Below, piece by piece: positions 55,287 through 61,218 of a DNA stretch of 61,218 bases. The notes below the pieces were generated by a model. The model was not told where the DNA came from and did no database searches. It was given only the letters and a program-made list of their open reading frames with translations. Position numbers and translations under genes: made by a program. Each line of letters begins with the position of its first letter. Position 1 is the stretch's first letter. Source of the stretch: Deltaproteobacteria bacterium (GTDB lineage Bacteria > SAR324 > NAC60-12); assembly GCA_038150265.1 (NCBI GenBank), contig JAYOTF010000020.1, positions 1-61,218 of the forward strand, in the 5' to 3' direction.

Positions 55287-55991
55287 ATGCAACCGATGCC
55301 GGAGTCTCGAGAGGACGCGGAAGAAGAGTGGATTGTTGAAAAGATCTATGAGGCTGTGCTGGACCAGCGCCTGAGGCCGGGGGTGAAGCTTTCGGAAGCG
55401 GAGTTGTGTGAGGCCTTTGGGGTGGGGCGGATGCGCATTCGGCGCAGTCTGTTGCTGCTGGCGAGTCGGGAGGTGGTGGAGTTGCTTCCAAACCGGGGGG
55501 CCTTTGTGGCCAAGCCCACGGCGCAGCAGGCCACGGACATCTTTGAGGCGCGTCTGATCATGGAGCCCCCTTTGCTGAAGATGGTGTTGGAGCGGGCTCA
55601 GGCTCCGGACCTGGCCGAGTTGGAGCAGCACCTGCGTGCCGAGTCGCAAGCTCGGGAGGCCGGACGCCGTCGGGAAGCGATCCGGCTTTCCGGGTTGTTT
55701 CACACGCACGTGGCACAGCTTGCTGGAAACGCGGTGATGATGCGTGCGGTCAAGGACCTGGTGGCTCGCTCCTCGCTGATTATTGGTCTCTATGGAGACC
55801 CCGGGTTGACGAGCTGCCGTGATGACGAACACGCCAGCATCATTGAGGCCCTGCGGGCTCATGAGGCCGAGCAGGCGCAGGAGCTGATGGTGTCGCACCT
55901 GCAGCACCTGAAGGAGCACCTCGACCTGGGGCTGCAGAAGCATGCCCCGCAAAACCTCGTCCAGCTCTTTGCGGCCGAAAGCCTCTCCTGA
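55287..55991 (+). CDS. GntR (FadR/FCD subfamily) transcriptional regulator
   Basis: LRPG.KLSEAEL...FGVGR HTH, PNRGAFV, FH...AGN, EH..I FCD motifs. Confidence 0.93.
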   Translation: MQPMPESREDAEEEWIVEKIYEAVLDQRLRPGVKLSEAELCEAFGVGRMRIRRSLLLLASREVVELLPNRGAFVAKPTAQQATDIFEARLIMEPPLLKMVLERAQAPDLAELEQHLRAESQAREAGRRREAIRLSGLFHTHVAQLAGNAVMMRAVKDLVARSSLIIGLYGDPGLTSCRDDEHASIIEALRAHEAEQAQELMVSHLQHLKEHLDLGLQKHAPQNLVQLFAAESLS

Positions 55992-56170
55992 ACGACGCCC
56001 TGCTCCCTCGGCGAGCCGCGCTCCTGGTACCTGCCCAGGCGGCTCTCCGGGGCCGCTCTTCCCCTTTCCTCCTCCCTTTCCTCCCTTGATTCCTGGCGGT
56101 GTTTCCCGCGGTGCGCCCAGCGGTTTCTCGCGGTCTGACGCCCCTTCTGAAAAAAATCGCCTCCTCCAAT

Positions 56171-56197
56171 TAAAGAAATTCTCCCGACTGCCGATAC
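56171..56197 (+). promoter_or_regulatory. sigma28 (FliA) promoter, distal
   Basis: TAAA-N15-GCCGATAC (one mismatch to TAAA-N15-GCCGATAA). Confidence 0.75.
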
Positions 56198-56247
56198 CTG
56201 AAGCAAGAAAACAAGCCCTCTCGGGTGAGGAACTGACGGAAAAGCGT

Positions 56248-56274
56248 TAAAGGTTTTCTCGGAAGTGCCGATAA
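56248..56274 (+). promoter_or_regulatory. sigma28 (FliA) promoter, proximal, perfect consensus
   Basis: TAAA-GGTTTTCTCGGAAGT-GCCGATAA. Confidence 0.88.
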
Positions 56275-56320
56275 GAGAGGGAAGTTCAGGGAAGAGTTCT
56301 GGATCTCCCAAAGGGATCAG

Positions 56321-57203
56321 GCTCGGAACCACAACAAGATCTTTGACCGAAACAATCCTGAAGGCGGTTTGACAAATTATAGCTGGTGCGGTGTTGCCGT
56401 ACCCCGCCTTTGAGACCCGCAGCAACCCATCGGAATGGGTTGTCAAGACGCTCGGAAGTGAGTGTAGGTGGCCAGGAGCTTCAGACGAAGCGACCGCTAC
56501 CGAGAAAAGAGGCAGGATGCCTTGATTCCTCCCCCCAGTCGGGGACACCACGAAAGAGATGTAGATTTGAGTGCCCTTGGAAGGGTATTGGATCTAAGCT
56601 CCAGGGACGGAGCCCTTCATGCAGGTCGCAAACGGGAGTGCAACCCGTTTAACGAGAGCCTTCAGGACGTACCAGCTAAGGCTATGCCCACACCGATTCA
56701 GTCGGCATTCCTCTGAAAAGAGGGCCTCCTCGTGTTGAGATGCCCATGCACCTGACACGAGCCCGTAGGCCCTGGAATCAGGCCATAAGGAACGCCGAAG
56801 TGAATGAGGCCTCCCTCTTCGGAACCTCGTCGTGTGTCGTCTGTCTGCCACAGGTGCGGATTCGGACGTCGTGGTGCGCGCAGAAACCGGCTCGGTTCCG
56901 TGAGAACCGCTTCAGTCGGCTTTCCCAAGCGCCCTTCTCCTGGAACCAGGAGCTGCGTCTTCGCCCCTGACCAAAAGGCAGGAACCGTGCGAACCGATCG
57001 GTCGTCTGTGCGAAAGAAACAGGGCCTGTTCGTCGCCTCACTCTGGTGAGGGACGTCGGACTGAACCCCAACCTTTCGCCGATGCTGCAGGATGGGAACA
57101 GCGTCGCTTGCCTCACCGCCTGGTGAGGGGCGTCGGACTGAATCCGGATTTCCTGCTCAGGCAAACAGGATCGGACAGCGTCGCGTGCCTCACTGCTTGG
57201 TGA
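56321..57203 (+). pseudogene. highly degenerate short-flagellin remnant (fossil 1)
   Basis: Collinear motifs by eye: NHN 56327, GLT 56366, QD 56513, ALHA 56612, F 56708, LGSV/NRF 56891-56913, AKE 57010, AQAN 57155; multiple stops and frameshifts. Confidence 0.5.
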
Positions 57204-57222
57204 GGGACGTCGAACTGAACCC
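57031..57222 (+). repeat. three imperfect tandem copies, 77-nt period, each with a CCTCAC-loop-GTGAGG hairpin
   Basis: CG(G/A)ACTGAA at 57057, 57134, 57211; GCCTCAC at 57035, 57110, 57187; shared TGGTGAGGG(A/G)CGTCG. Confidence 0.9.
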
Positions 57223-57241
57223 GAATCCCTGGCCTTCGACG

Positions 57242-57640
57242 CGAACGAATCCGACTGTGTCTCTGACGCAGGGTTCCGGACTGCGCCGAGTGTCCAGACG
57301 ACTGAGCGCCGAGGTGCAGGCTTGCAGGCTTTCGTAAAGGCCCTCTGCTTGAAGCAGGCGGCTTTGCAGGAACCTCGAGCTGCACGAAGTTCTGAAGGAA
57401 GGGAGCGTGCGAAACGGGACGCCTCGGTCGAGACAGCCAATCTGCCTCACCGCCGAAGTGAACCCGCGCTCTGGTCCTCAGGTCGAGTGAATGGAACACG
57501 GACTTCAACCTTCCCCAAGGTTGTCCAGGCTCCACTCCATGCGGCCAACGGTTATCAGCGGCTTTCGAATGAGCCCCTTCCTGGGAGCTCCTGAAGACAG
57601 CACGATTGGTACGGCTTGTTTCATCAATAAAATTTTATTT
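57242..57640 (+). pseudogene. degenerate flagellin N-terminal-domain remnant (fossil 2)
   Basis: Collinear RLS 57299, LKQA 57349, RNLE 57368, VETA 57427, LTAEVN 57446, LHAANG 57535, FINKILF 57620, spread over shifting frames. Confidence 0.55.
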
Positions 57641-57713
57641 TCATTCCACTTACCGGTTCAGGGATGGGTTCGGTTAAGTGCTTTCGGGGAACATCTCGCT
57701 TGAAGGAGGATTT

Positions 57714-59321
57714 ATGCGAGTGAACCACAATATTGCGTCAATGACTGCCTTGCGGCACCTGGGATTGACGAGTAACGCGACGGAGAAAAACCTCCAGCGC
57801 TTGTCTTCAGGCATGAAGATCAATGCAGGGGCAGACGGTCCTGCAGAGTTGATGATTTCGGAGCAGATGCGGGCTCAGGTCACCGGCCTGAACCAAGCGG
57901 TGAAGAACTCTGAGACCGGCATCTCCATGGTGCAAACGGCTGAGGGCGCCCTCAGCGAAGTGAGTTCGATTCTCATCAACATGCGCCAGCTGGCACTGCA
58001 CGCTGCCAACGAAGGGGCCAACGACGAGAAGATGCTCCAGGCGGACCAGAACGAGATCGAGAATCTGCTCTCGACTCTGGACCGAATTGCGAAAAACACC
58101 CAGTTCGGAACCCGGACCCTCTTTGACGGCAGCAACTCCGCGTCCGGAGTTGTGGTCGGCGATGGCCTGAGCTTTGTCACGGCTTCTGAAAAGACGCAGG
58201 CAGCTCCGACCAAGAGCGGTTTTGAAATCGACATCAAGCAGGTGGCAACCCGCACTGAGGTGGTGGCCGACCGTGGCTTGACGGTTGAGGACCTCGATGA
58301 AGGGGTCACCTTTGTGATCAACGAAGGCAACCGCCTGGCTCGCTTGAACACCAAGACCGACGATCCGGAAATGGCGCAGAGCATCGACCAGCTGCTCAAC
58401 AACTACCGCCTTTCCCCGGAAATCTTCGACAAGTCCGAGGTGGAGAACAACATCCGGCAGCTGGTGGCTCGGTCACTGGACAAGAAAGCAGCTGACAACG
58501 GACTGAATGTGGATGTCTTCATTGACGACGTCGGCATGCTCAACGTGCGGCACAAGATGTTCGGCAGCGAGCCTTCCTTCAGCGTGACCTCCAGCAAGGC
58601 GGGAGTGCTGGCCAAGGAAGCCAACATTGCGACCTACTCCGATGGTGGCCGGGATGTGGCCGGTTACATCGGTGGTGAGCCGGGTGTCGGAAGCGGTCAG
58701 TTCCTTGAGGGGGCAACGGGCACACCGGTGGAAGGCCTGGTGGTGCAATACGACAAGGTCCTGGAGAAGCGGATCATTGACATCAAGGATGCCCAGGGCA
58801 ACGTCATTGGCAAGGAACTGGTCCAGCAGTCCAACGATGAGCTGGTTGGCAACGATGTGGACGGCTTTGCCCACGTCGCCCAGAACTCCCTGACCTACCA
58901 GGTGGGCTCGAACTACCAGCAGACCATCAAGTTTTCGCTGAGTGACCTGCGCTCCGAGCAACTGGCTCAGGGCATGGAGAACGGCAGCGGTTACCGGAGC
59001 CTGGCAGACATTGATCTGACCACCGGAGAAGGCGCTCAAGATGCCCTCTTGATGATCGACCGAGGCATTGAGGAAGTGAACGTCCTTCGTGCCAACCTCG
59101 GTTCGTTCCAGAAGAACGCCCTGGAGACCAACCTCCGGAACCTGCGAGTGGCCAGTGAAAAGCTGACCAACGCGGAGTCAGTGATCCGTGACTCCGACAT
59201 GGCGCAGGAAATGAGCGAGTTCACCAAGAACCAGATCCTGCTGGCATCTGGAACGGCCATGGCCGCTCAGGCGAACCAAATTCCGAAGTCTGTACTGCAG
59301 CTCCTCAACGGCGCTCAGTAA
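57714..59321 (+). CDS. fliC: flagellin
   Basis: SD AAGGAGG; MRVNHNI, RLSSGMKIN, QTAEGAL, RANLGSFQ, IRDSDMAQEM, AQANQ...VLQLL; large central domain. Confidence 0.95.
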   Translation: MRVNHNIASMTALRHLGLTSNATEKNLQRLSSGMKINAGADGPAELMISEQMRAQVTGLNQAVKNSETGISMVQTAEGALSEVSSILINMRQLALHAANEGANDEKMLQADQNEIENLLSTLDRIAKNTQFGTRTLFDGSNSASGVVVGDGLSFVTASEKTQAAPTKSGFEIDIKQVATRTEVVADRGLTVEDLDEGVTFVINEGNRLARLNTKTDDPEMAQSIDQLLNNYRLSPEIFDKSEVENNIRQLVARSLDKKAADNGLNVDVFIDDVGMLNVRHKMFGSEPSFSVTSSKAGVLAKEANIATYSDGGRDVAGYIGGEPGVGSGQFLEGATGTPVEGLVVQYDKVLEKRIIDIKDAQGNVIGKELVQQSNDELVGNDVDGFAHVAQNSLTYQVGSNYQQTIKFSLSDLRSEQLAQGMENGSGYRSLADIDLTTGEGAQDALLMIDRGIEEVNVLRANLGSFQKNALETNLRNLRVASEKLTNAESVIRDSDMAQEMSEFTKNQILLASGTAMAAQANQIPKSVLQLLNGAQ

Positions 59322-59409
59322 CCCCCGTTCCATCCCGAGTCCCTTGCTCCTTCTCCTTCGGGAGCGGGGGGCGTGGGGCGGAGGATGGGCGGACTCAGGG
59401 ACGTCCTTC

Positions 59410-59690
59410 AGCAGCATTGAACGCCAGTGGTGCTGGAGAACATTCCTGAGGAAGCCACGCCTCGTGCGACGCTTCTTCAGTCAGTTGAGTACCTGGTGGA
59501 GGTTCCTGGTCAGGAACCAACGGACCGGTCGGACCCATGAGCCTTTGGAGGCCAGTGGTTCAAGACCCTGGAAGTCCGCCCGCCTGAAGCATCCAAGCCC
59601 GAAGGGCCTCCTCAGAGGAGGAGGTGCGCGGGAGTCGTTACAAAACAAAAGGTTTAATTCCCAAGGATGGGACGAGTTTTTTCAAGGAGG
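59410..59690 (+). pseudogene. degenerate flagellin N-terminal-domain remnant (fossil 3)
   Basis: SSIER 59410, SQL 59479, VRNQRTG 59509 (cf. VKNSETG), VQ 59558, NKRFNSQ 59644. Confidence 0.45.
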
Positions 59691-59760
59691 AAGTGTTGCT
59701 TATGACAATGATTGAATAGGCCCCGGCCTGGACCGGAGCCACCATCTGAGGAGGTGGTTT

Positions 59761-61179
59761 ATGTCTGTAAACATGCAAAGCAATTGGGTTGCGTTGGGAG
59801 CCACGGTTGGCAGTTCTCCGGAACGTCAGTCAGGGCGGTCTCAATCGCAGGTCCTCAAGAAGCTGAAGCCCCGGTCCTCTTCTGAATCACCTGCTGTGAT
59901 GCACATCTCCGAAGGAGTGCGCATCCATGCCTCCAGTCTGGTTCACCAGATCAATGAGGCAGAGAGTGATGTTTCCCTGCTGCAGACCGCAAGTGATGCC
60001 CTGGGGAAGGTGGAAGAGGAGCTGCGTGAGTGGAGTGCGGAACTGGAGAAGGCTGTCGAAGATGGCTCGATCTGGGAAGCAGCCCGCTTGCGGGTGGAAG
60101 CTCACCTTGAGGAGATCGACCGGATCGCCGCGATGACGCACTACGGTGCCCAGAATCTGCTGGATGGCAGCCGAGCCCTGAAGGGCTTCGCTTCCGGAGA
60201 GCACCTGGAGTTCATCCAGGCAGACGGAGGAATTCCTTCCTCTCCTGCCAAGGGCTACCCGGTGGAGGTCAAGCGCTCGGCAACCCGAGCGGAACTGCGG
60301 GGGAAAGTTCCCCTGACCCGTGAGTACATCGACCATGAGGAGCGCCTCGTCTTGAAAGAGGGCAGCTCCGAGGTTCAGTTCATCACCCGCAAGGGTGAGG
60401 ATTTGGACGAGACCCTGCGCCGCTTGGCGCTGGTGATCCGTCAGGCCGAACTCCCGCTGGAGTTGGTCCGGAATCCTTCAGGCGTGCTTCACTTCCGGCA
60501 CGTCCAGTATGGAAGCCGCTCCCGGTTCAGTGGAGCCAGTGCGACTCCAGGAGTGCTGTCTCCTGAAGCCAATCTGCTGGTCGACTCCGCCCCTGGGTTG
60601 GACATCGTCGGCACCATCAACGGTGAGCCTGTTCGTGGAATGGGACAGCTGCTGGTGGGTTCGTCGGAGTCCTCCAAGTTGGCGGGACTGTGCCTGCGAT
60701 TCAATGGCACCGGCAACAATTTGGGAGAAGTCGGCAGTGTCACGATCTTTCAAAACGGAATCCCCCTCCACATCGGAGGAGGCGTCCAGAATGCGCGACT
60801 CGGTCTGAAGAGCATCCGCTCCAGCGAGTTGGGGGGACAGGTGCCCAACGTGTCCGGGTTCACCTGCCTTGCCGACATCCAACTGGATCATCAGGAGGAG
60901 CTGAGCGATGCCCGACGGGTGGTTGAGAAAGCGTTGAAGGAGGTCCTTCAGGCCAAGGCCCGGATTGATCTTGTCAACCAGGAACACCTGCAGGCGGGGC
61001 TGCGTAAGCTCCGGCATGACCACCTGGCGCGTCAGGGGCCCTTTACTCCGATAAAGGATTCCGGAACCGCCAAGTATGTGGCGCGGAACACGCGGATGCA
61101 GATCATGAAAGACTCCGGAACCTCGACGATGGCACAAGCCCATCAGAAACCGGAAACCGTGATGCACCTGCTGAAGTAA
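59761..61179 (+). CDS. divergent flagellin-family protein, paralog of the upstream flagellin
   Basis: SLLQTASDAL, EIDRIA..T.YG..LLDG, MAQAHQ.PE.VM.LL; central domain aligns with the upstream flagellin. Confidence 0.85.
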   Translation: MSVNMQSNWVALGATVGSSPERQSGRSQSQVLKKLKPRSSSESPAVMHISEGVRIHASSLVHQINEAESDVSLLQTASDALGKVEEELREWSAELEKAVEDGSIWEAARLRVEAHLEEIDRIAAMTHYGAQNLLDGSRALKGFASGEHLEFIQADGGIPSSPAKGYPVEVKRSATRAELRGKVPLTREYIDHEERLVLKEGSSEVQFITRKGEDLDETLRRLALVIRQAELPLELVRNPSGVLHFRHVQYGSRSRFSGASATPGVLSPEANLLVDSAPGLDIVGTINGEPVRGMGQLLVGSSESSKLAGLCLRFNGTGNNLGEVGSVTIFQNGIPLHIGGGVQNARLGLKSIRSSELGGQVPNVSGFTCLADIQLDHQEELSDARRVVEKALKEVLQAKARIDLVNQEHLQAGLRKLRHDHLARQGPFTPIKDSGTAKYVARNTRMQIMKDSGTSTMAQAHQKPETVMHLLK

Positions 61180-61185
61180 TACAAA

Positions 61186-61202
61186 GAGCCCCTTGGGGGC
61201 TC
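61186..61202. terminator. hairpin after the second flagellin, possibly the terminator of a convergent gene
   Basis: GAGCCCC-TTG-GGGGCTC preceded by AAA on the plus strand. Confidence 0.45.
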
Positions 61203-61218
61203 GAGTTCAGGTCACCGC

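Follow-up and report, generated by a model that had tools for sequence, protein, structure and literature searches.

A structured spacer between two flagellin genes of an uncultured bacterium carries a predicted CsrA operator and a five-codon open reading frame

Introduction

What might be the role of the 439 nucleotides that separate two neighbouring flagellin genes in contig JAYOTF010000020.1 (assembly GCA_038150265.1)? The window analysed here is this entire contig (61,218 nucleotides; C20 below), from a metagenome-assembled genome of 3.39 Mb, in 87 contigs, that is 97.8% complete. The spacer, at positions 59322-59760, follows the gene for one flagellin (flagellin 1) and precedes that for a divergent paralog (flagellin 2). 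A preliminary description of the spacer had bundled two ideas. One was that the DNA is a decayed copy of the N-terminal part of a flagellin gene, a 'fossil', kept as a functional module in each leader. The other was that it forms hairpins presenting GGA triplets, suited to CsrA. Here, we show that the second idea is favoured by sequence, folding, conservation, motif enrichment and the presence of csrA and fliW, and that the first is not. We propose that the spacer is probably a structured RNA, which doubles as the leader of flagellin 2 and the 3' end region of the message from flagellin 1. The conserved 3' part would then be a CsrA operator. Throughout, G000 is the genome under study, G001 and G002 are congeners, and G005, G013, G015 and G019 are further relatives. 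Metagenome loci are numbered L055-L059 and C-numbers denote contigs of G000.

Results

The 3' part of the spacer, between positions 59656 and 59760, is made up of a series of small elements. In order, these are site A, a U-rich stretch, site B, a mini open reading frame (mini-ORF), and two hairpins named H4 and H5 (Table 1). Sites A and B both fit CANGGANG and their GGA triplets, at 59665 and 59686, are 21 nucleotides apart. The spacer therefore has two loop-presented GGA motifs at a spacing appropriate for one CsrA dimer, with the hairpin at site B being weak. Note that the consensus for CsrA, from SELEX, is RUACARGGAUGU, with the GGA mostly in six-nucleotide loops on short stems (excerpts of PMC7652899). 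The core of the module fits this consensus.

From 59656 up to the start codon of flagellin 2, the module is preserved in G002, G001 and L059, unlike the middle of the spacer. At site A, the stem is kept in all four sequences and the probability of the GGA being unpaired is 0.93 in G000 and 0.95 in G001. The TCAAGGAGGA element of site B is invariant in G000, G002, G001 and L059, and the flanking stem is compensatorily different in G001 (ACUC/GAGU, as read from alignment A3). More broadly, G001 and L059 keep both sites (site A as CCUAGGGAUGGGA), the AUG, the UAG that closes the frame after five sense codons, and, with a different sequence, a hairpin at the Shine-Dalgarno (SD) sequence. The outer stem of H4 is kept in the four sequences, with 95% of cells paired. 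The cell-based covariation scores of the module were reached by none of 500 shuffles, and controls in which the pairing was slid scored 0-2.

The SD sequence of flagellin 2, GGAGG, is 6 nucleotides before the AUG and is enclosed in H5. It forms part of a longer GAGGAGG, with a GGA at 59750, that does not fit CANGGANG. This GGA could nevertheless be a third CsrA site (site C). In G001, the equivalent hairpin differs in sequence (CCUC-AUUAC-GAGG). Site B overlaps the SD-like sequence of the mini-ORF, not the SD of flagellin 2.

Table 1. Features of the spacer, the flanking genes and related loci. The final column gives the basis for each feature.
Feature	Coordinates	Strand	Basis
Flagellin 1, upstream gene, 535 amino acids	57714..59321	+	Pfam Flagellin_N 4.1e-35, Flagellin_C 3.9e-19; flagellin NCBIfam models
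H1, long imperfect stem-loop right after flagellin 1 stop, core CUCC-UUCG-GGAG (59353-59364)	59322..59392	+	-46.9 kcal/mol
UUCG-capped core CTCCTTCGGGAG	59353-59364	+	Position confirmed
H2, 23-pair interrupted stem-loop, conserved apical CAUUG-loop-CAGUG	59394..59450	+	-34.2 kcal/mol, z -6.02, 0/200 shuffles
SSIER..SG string AGCAGCATTGAACGCCAGTGGT	59410-59431	+	Position confirmed
Variable GGA-rich, locally folded spacer	59451..59655	+	Poor G000/G002 alignment; deleted in G001
VRNQRTG string GTCAGGAACCAACGGACCGGT	59509-59529	+	Position confirmed
Small hairpin GCCU-UUGG-AGGC, GCCTTTGGAGGC	59541-59552	+	Position confirmed; in predicted folds
Quoted string GTTCAAGACC	59558-59567	+	Position confirmed
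NKRFNSQ codons	from 59644	+	Position confirmed
Site A hairpin UCCCA-AGGA-UGGGA, presents CAAGGAUG, fits CANGGANG, GGA at 59665	59659..59672	+	Minimum free energy (MFE) and centroid folds
Quoted hairpin TCCCAAGGATGGGA (site A)	59659-59672	+	Position confirmed
Site B UUUC-AAGGAG-GAAG, CAAGGAGG hexaloop-type hairpin, strong SD-like, GGA at 59686	59680..59693	+	Sequence, MFE fold
Mini-ORF AUG ACA AUG AUU GAA UAG, five sense codons	59702..59719	+	AUG and UAG conserved
H4 hairpin GGC-CCGG-CCUGGA-CCGG-GCC, starts at mini-ORF stop	59719..59740	+	-12.6 kcal/mol; MFE and centroid folds
H5 hairpin with flagellin 2 SD (GGAGG 59750-59754), GGA 59750 = site C	59738..59758	+	-9.7 kcal/mol; MFE and centroid folds
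Quoted SD hairpin GCCACCATCTGAGGAGGTGGT (H5)	59738-59758	+	Position confirmed
Flagellin 2, divergent paralog, 472 amino acids	59761..61179	+	Both Pfam domains below cut-off; NCBIfam flagellin models to 3.7e-15, below cut-offs
CsrA-type flagellin leaders	L055:60-111; L056:143-194 (reverse strand)		Sites letter-identical to A and B

Overall, GGA triplets are abundant in the spacer. There are 23 in 439 nucleotides, compared to 14.4 +/- 2.5 in dinucleotide shuffles (none of 300 reached the observed count), and the same strand has 12 TCC triplets. Enrichment is evident in five of seven orthologous spacers, where no more than 2 of 300 shuffles reach the count. Between the flagellin genes arrayed on contig C6, GGA/TCC counts are 17/9, 24/16, 10/2, 19/10 and 3/3; four of these five spacers are strand-biased. 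We also counted motifs in the 200 nucleotides upstream of each of 17 flagellin starts. The sequence CARGGATG, found 257 times in the genome, occurs twice in these regions (0.13 expected) and both instances are in this window. Similarly, NANGGATG was observed 6 times and 0.66 occurrences were expected. A broad genome-wide regular expression, combining a GGA site, SD and start, was too noisy for use.

Metagenome contigs were scanned for the pattern GGATGGGA-N7-12-TCAAGGAGGA-N2-8-TTATG, and five loci were identified. Two (L057 and L058) have no flagellin and are taken as chance matches, and one is a G001-like contig. The others, L055 and L056, are low-GC contigs where TTCCCAAGGATGGGACG...TTCAAGGAGGAA...ATG directly precedes a flagellin gene. 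The encoded proteins are 47-48% identical to flagellin 1 over the N-terminal domain. Note that TTCCCAAGGATGGGACG equals positions 59657-59673 (17 nucleotides) and TTCAAGGAGGAA equals 59681-59692; the order is the same and 8-9 nucleotides are between. Judged by its letters, which are the same at both sites, the unit comprising site A, site B and AUG (A-B-AUG) is of the same design as two real flagellin starts in distant bacteria. As a separate observation, L055 and L056, compared with this window, show how remarkably little the predicted operator varies even between very distant bacteria.

The leader of flagellin 1 has a matching pair of sites. These are a CAGGGAUGGG hairpin, 55 nucleotides before the start, and GAAGGAGGA-N3-AUG at the SD. 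A CARGGAUGGG hairpin, followed by a AAGGAGGA site, is the one architecture common to both leaders. The combination is, on present prediction, an ordinary CsrA operator of flagellin mRNAs rather than a fossil.

The regulators needed are also encoded. There is one csrA and one fliW in the genome, on contig C4, adjoining flgL in the order flgL-csrA-fliW (profile matches of 4.4e-25 and 1.9e-37 for CsrA and FliW, respectively). The 77 amino acid CsrA aligns with PDB chain 5dmb_D over residues 2-73, which indicates that the long C-terminal extension is present. The FliW has 163 amino acids. The alternative leader-binding regulators FlbT and FlaF were not found in this 97.8% complete genome.

The mini-ORF occupies the position where the flagellin start is found in canonical leaders. 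The true start of flagellin 2 is 59 nucleotides further on. An SD-like site lies 9-11 nucleotides upstream of the mini-ORF AUG. This site, the start, the stop and the five-codon length are kept in two lineages. The peptide is not (MTMIE compared to MNDEK in G001 and L059). The codons can pair with the U-rich stretch before site B, and five of these pairs are changed on both sides. Hence, the constraint is more likely to be RNA pairing than coding. A further pairing is possible between the UGCUUA and UAGGC blocks, both of which are invariant.

We next describe the remainder of the spacer. As a whole, this folds with -202.8 kcal/mol, compared to -178.9 +/- 6.1 kcal/mol for shuffles (z -3.9; none of 100 shuffles as good). 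In the genus alignment (A1) of the 439 nucleotide spacer, there are three conserved blocks and a variable middle. At the 5' end are two stem-loops, H1 and H2. The stability of H1 is matched by 1 of 200 shuffles (z -3.09), and the element is near-invariant in G002 and G001. In H2, 4 of 23 pairs are changed on both sides across three genomes, with slid controls giving 0-2. Both folds include G-U pairs and so belong to the + strand RNA, rather than being DNA palindromes. An Rfam 15 scan of the window, at gathering thresholds, identified only a tRNA at 439-511, such that the spacer is in no curated RNA family. A scan of 55900-59900 by E-value produced only three sub-threshold microRNA-like matches, all on H1. 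There were no matches to the H1 core in a metagenome scan. The genome was also searched with each of the four parts of the spacer (H1, H2, the middle and the 3' module), and none has a second copy; the best stray matches had E values of at least 0.03 and H1 is single copy.

The preliminary description noted that the stem after flagellin 1 has no U tract. Folding and a terminator scan bear this out, and transcription read-through of the stem is possible. We considered H1 and H2 as intrinsic (Rho-independent) terminators, and rejected this because stems are present with a U run after neither. The only candidates from the terminator scan of the spacer were the two small GGA hairpins. All 15 flagellin genes examined, out of 17, have strong stems after them (-22 to -58 kcal/mol, within 90 nucleotides). 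By eye, most have no U run, although U runs were not formally scored. Hence, H1 is the local form of a general feature. H1 and H2 would most likely be a 3' stabiliser, a U-less terminator, or a processing site for flagellin 1 mRNA.

The variable middle, 59451-59655, diverges strongly between G000 and G002 although the flanking proteins are 92-96% identical. Between 59453 and 59640 there are 9 GGA triplets, compared to 5.1 +/- 1.6 in shuffles, 3 of 300 of which reach the count. At 59603-59626 we also noticed a hairpin, GGCCUCCUC-AGA-GGAGGAGGUGC, where an anti-SD-like CCUCCUC is paired with a GGAGGAGG run. This is not conserved in G002.

To look for transcripts, contigs from four salt-marsh metatranscriptome runs, in four studies, were placed on the region. 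Note that cover is patchy and of low depth, and gaps are not evidence of absence. RNA contigs cover 56238-57600, parts of flagellin 1, 59528-59687, 59706-59997 and 59975-60372. An internal silent control, 55900-56237, has zero contigs. We conclude that at least the 3' 230 nucleotides of the spacer are present in RNA. The source of this RNA could be either an unrecognised promoter or read-through of H1 and H2. In H2, the sequence TGGTGC...AAC was considered as a sigma-54 promoter and dismissed by eye, since the GC at -12 is missing. We also rejected the spacer as a sponge small RNA of the CsrB/RsmZ type. The DNA is GGA-rich, but has neither a promoter motif nor a canonical terminator to delimit a separate RNA.

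Further upstream, two near-perfect sigma-28-type promoters, TAAAG-N15-GCCGATA, are on the + strand at 56171-56196 and 56248-56273. These are 1.44-1.54 kb before the flagellin 1 start. The RNA contigs of the four runs, which start at 56238 and 56283, together span most of 56238-57600. Either flagellin 1 apparently has a transcribed, non-coding leader of ~1.4 kb, or a long non-coding RNA lies upstream of it. Inside this long region are three direct repeats (57021-57072, 57098-57149 and 57175-57226) with a 77 nucleotide period and 62-87% identity to the middle copy. Each carries a CCUCAC...GGUGAGG hairpin. An A/T-rich element, AAAATTTTATTTTCATTCC, is at ~57613-57640, ~85-100 nucleotides before the flagellin 1 start. 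Similar elements precede flagellin 1 orthologs in the other six genomes and the flagellin 2 orthologs of G005 and G015. The element could be a promoter, an UP-like element or a translation enhancer.

Is any of the spacer derived from a flagellin gene? The strings quoted in support of a fossil all exist where they were placed, by direct sequence check, and are roughly colinear with flagellin motifs. The hairpins named alongside them (the stem after flagellin 1, GCCU-UUGG-AGGC, UCCCA-AGGA-UGGGA and the SD hairpin) appear in predicted folds, and the GGA excess is real. What did not survive is the assertion that flagellin-like matches are above chance; pairwise, profile and Pfam similarities are all at chance level. 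In blastn-short comparisons of the spacer with flagellin 1, flagellin 2 and the upstream non-coding region, the best E values were 0.53, 0.46 and 0.14. Using blastx, with a two-protein database of the flanking flagellins, the best E was 0.39. The spacer was also locally aligned with the first 435 nucleotides of four paralogs. With strict scoring, 116, 19, 54 and 95 of 200 dinucleotide shuffles reached the observed score. With permissive scoring, and the same paralogs, 30, 37, 30 and 0 of 200 did so. The zero is paralog C13:18504, the one of four tested to exceed all shuffles, and this favours a fossil. However, the outlier vanishes when the comparison is with 400 random genomic segments. Using 16 paralogs and 400 random genomic 435-mers, the lowest null fractions were 0.028 and 0.030, with 0.312 for flagellin 1, and reverse-complement control targets reached 0.033. 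Because there were 32 comparisons, and the reverse-complement controls behaved alike, we attribute the low fractions to noise. Aligning the spacer with 57242-57713 and 56321-56730, the two other supposed fossils, gave scores reached by 296 and 53 of 300 shuffles. The best DNA match, 13 identities in 21, is one of 118 such pairs of 21-mers between the spacer and the first 435 nucleotides of flagellin 1; mononucleotide shuffles produce 82 +/- 19.

Profile searches gave the same answer. A Flagellin_N profile, built from 15 N-terminal domains of G000, was used unfiltered with the two leaders, cut from stop to stop in six frames into 95 pieces. Among pieces of the spacer the highest score was -1.5 bits, and among all pieces 1.3 bits. 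As a control, the N-terminus of the divergent flagellin 2 scored 59.5 bits. Hence, no reading frame of the spacer is significantly similar to the flagellin N-terminal domain (PF00669). The SSIER, VRNQRTG and NKRFNSQ strings are all within one open frame of 123 codons (59344-59712), which matches zero Pfam families at E <= 1. We rejected this frame as a protein-coding gene since it has no family match and is broken, relative to G002, by gaps of 1, 2 and 5 nucleotides in alignment A1. No part of the spacer evolves faster than the main 'fossil' interval (~59450-59640), which G001 lacks. The SSIER..SG string is the apical part of H2, which explains its conserved and meaningful look. We now give the fossil next to no credence. 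It is rejected for the flagellin 2 leader and, by the profile test, for the long region upstream of flagellin 1. A false lead is thereby removed: these leaders contain no conserved 'flagellin fossil' module.

Finally, we considered the wider flagellin locus. Genome-wide, 18 Flagellin_N matches correspond to about 16 flagellin genes, flgL and the divergent paralog. Flagellin 2 is 36% identical to the C6 array flagellins over residues 26-471. In G002, the ortholog heads a contiguous tandem flagellin array. The end of C20 (61127-61218) overlaps the first ~90 nucleotides of C6 (C6:1-92), with few differences, such that an assembly break falls inside the flagellin array. Together with the gene order in G002, this end overlap indicates that flagellin 2 is the first gene of an array continuing on C6. 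The array has at least 7 genes. One member, C6:6278-7891, is interrupted; the frame stops after 246 codons and the remainder, to the C-terminal LRLLG, is in another frame. The cause could be a genuine frameshift, making this a pseudogene, or a fault in the assembly. The flagellin at C13:3776 is likewise short (302 codons). The order flagellin 1, spacer, flagellin 2 and array is common to six relatives. Orthologs of flagellin 2 are 92% identical in G002, 59% in G001 and ~40% in G005, G019, G015 and G013. Spacer lengths in G002, G001, G005, G019, G015 and G013 are 451, 301, 853, 1276, 646 and 1103 nucleotides; the figure of 1276 includes a run of N.

Discussion

We favour a model where a CsrA dimer would bind sites A and B, as CANGGANG hairpins 21 nucleotides apart, and/or the GGA in the SD hairpin of flagellin 2. 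Bound CsrA would block ribosome loading. FliW, when free of unsecreted flagellin, would remove CsrA. Flagellin 2 would then be made only during filament export, as for Bacillus subtilis hag and Campylobacter jejuni flaA. Note that the A-B-AUG unit would open the five-codon mini-ORF, not flagellin, with the true start 59 nucleotides on and behind two more hairpins. The module is, as predicted, a known kind of device in variant form. Briefly, a canonical operator and start codon head a five-codon frame upstream of the true start, itself embedded in a hairpin. Given the GGA-rich spacer, an extra role as a titrator of CsrA is possible, as for flaA (excerpts of PMC4894983).

Several results weigh against a CsrA operator. 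In stability, the 3' module does not stand out from shuffles (z -0.07; 91 of 200 fold as well) and the site B hairpin, in isolation, is worth -1.0 kcal/mol. Covariation derives from only two independent lineages, and the count of pairs changed on both sides is reached in 197 of 500 shuffles. The exact module is confined to one genus, with 3 of the 64 genomes searched in the order having it; four other genera have only looser GGA sites before the flagellin 2 ortholog. Pairs of CANGGANG sites, 5-30 nucleotides apart, occur 50 times genome-wide, mostly inside genes. There is no GGA enrichment in the G001 or G015 spacers. Concerning transcription, the spacer has no sigma-70-like promoter and no sigma-28 motif TAAAG-N15-GCCGAT, of which the genome has 9. 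In the four metatranscriptome runs, with their patchy cover, no RNA contig lies over 59323-59527 or 60373-61218. Alternatively, the DNA might be a plain spacer, with a terminator-like stem for flagellin 1, an unrecognised promoter and an ordinary SD. The GGA triplets would be a by-product of purine-rich SD-like sequence and G+C-rich hairpins, with no involvement of CsrA. The ordinary stability of the module, the frequency of CANGGANG pairs, the confinement to one genus and the strong stems after every flagellin gene examined (15 of 17) all agree with this. Conversely, sites A and B stay unchanged where the sequence around them does not, and are identical to operators before flagellins of unrelated bacteria. 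Furthermore, the motif is enriched upstream of flagellin genes, GGA outnumbers TCC by 23 to 12, and csrA and fliW are present. We consider a plain spacer quite improbable.

Two further possibilities concern what the parts of the spacer do. In one, CsrA would control ribosome loading on the mini-ORF, or on a standby site at site B, and the effect would be relayed to the hairpin-locked start. Putative translation of the mini-ORF would end at 59719, the foot of H4, and A-B-AUG would be a working mimic of a flagellin start. Alternatively, A-B-AUG would be a decoy, in cis, that soaks up CsrA. Consistent with either, the two lineages share the start, SD-like site, in-frame UAG and length but not the codons. 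The unit also matches the real flagellin leaders of L055 and L056, the stop abuts H4, and the true SD is within H5. However, we estimate that the four intervening codons would stay open by chance ~80% of the time, (61/64)^4. The codons covary with the upstream U-rich strand in five pairs, which points to a constraint on RNA pairing instead. The conserved UGCUUA and UAGGC blocks are mutually pairable, and a ribosome stopped at 59719 would not reach H5. On balance, a relay or decoy is conceivable but rather unlikely. A more ambitious version is doubtful. In this, A-B-AUG is a mimic in cis of a flagellin start, CsrA/FliW control of the mini-ORF or standby site is relayed to the hairpin-locked start of flagellin 2, and the GGA-rich spacers of the array jointly buffer free CsrA. 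The other possibility is intercistronic processing. Flagellins 1 and 2 would be co-transcribed from the sigma-28 promoters at 56171 and 56248, with H1 and H2 acting as an RNase III-type cleavage and stabiliser pair. Cleavage would leave a 3' hairpin on the flagellin 1 mRNA and a 5' hairpin on that of flagellin 2. Within the spacer, H1 and H2 indeed rank first in conservation and stability, and their G-U pairs make them specific to the + strand. In addition, a U tract follows neither, searches of the spacer gave no promoter motif, and RNA contigs are on both sides. Against this, no RNA contig bridges 59323-59527, noting that contigs cannot show RNA ends. Furthermore, we read the G005 and G015 spacer (genus g4) as having a terminator-like hairpin and U run, which indicates that co-transcription is not general. 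Hence, we regard processing as unlikely.

If the predicted CsrA operator is correct, the FliW-CsrA flagellin checkpoint of Firmicutes, Campylobacter and spirochaetes also runs in an uncultured lineage with about 16 flagellin genes. It would also show how a single repressor can reach many paralogs whose leaders differ in design. For relay or decoy control by CsrA, the detached operator with its mini-ORF would offer a compact and natural test. Should the mimic of a flagellin start also prove true, flagellin homeostasis would here be checked in two steps, by way of a leader mimic, in a phylum where the checkpoint is not known to have been studied. Among the literature titles listed for CsrA and flagellin in Verrucomicrobia, none is on flagellin leaders there, and the excerpt of PMC3720852 has nothing on CsrA sites in leaders.

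The closest known system is the C. jejuni flaA 5' untranslated region (UTR), with its stem-loops SL1 and SL2 (Dugar et al. 2016; excerpts of PMC4894983). There, as here, two GGAs are in adjacent CANGGANG hexaloop-type hairpins. The flaA spacing is likewise 21 nucleotides, with 18 being the optimum for one CsrA dimer. Both proteins of the C. jejuni CsrA-FliW network are encoded here too. The difference is that the second flaA hairpin carries flagellin's own ribosome-binding site, in a UTR of 45 nucleotides. In our case, a mini-ORF follows the pair, the flagellin start is 59 nucleotides downstream with its own SD hairpin, and the leader is at least 230 nucleotides or intercistronic. In the leader of B. 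subtilis hag, one of the two CsrA sites overlaps the SD (Yakhnin 2007; Mukherjee 2011; both by way of excerpts of PMC7652899). The spacer resembles this in having an upstream GGA site and a GGA at an SD, with CsrA, including the C-terminal extension, and FliW encoded beside flgL. Unlike in B. subtilis, the gene order here is flgL-csrA-fliW, there are about 16 flagellin genes rather than one, and the operator is detached from the regulated start. At the other end of the spacer, H1 is like a Rho-independent terminator, in being a strong G+C-rich stem-loop right after a stop codon, and unlike one in having no U tract. With L055 and L056, the likeness ends at the AUG after site B. In those loci the AUG opens a full flagellin gene; here it opens five codons.

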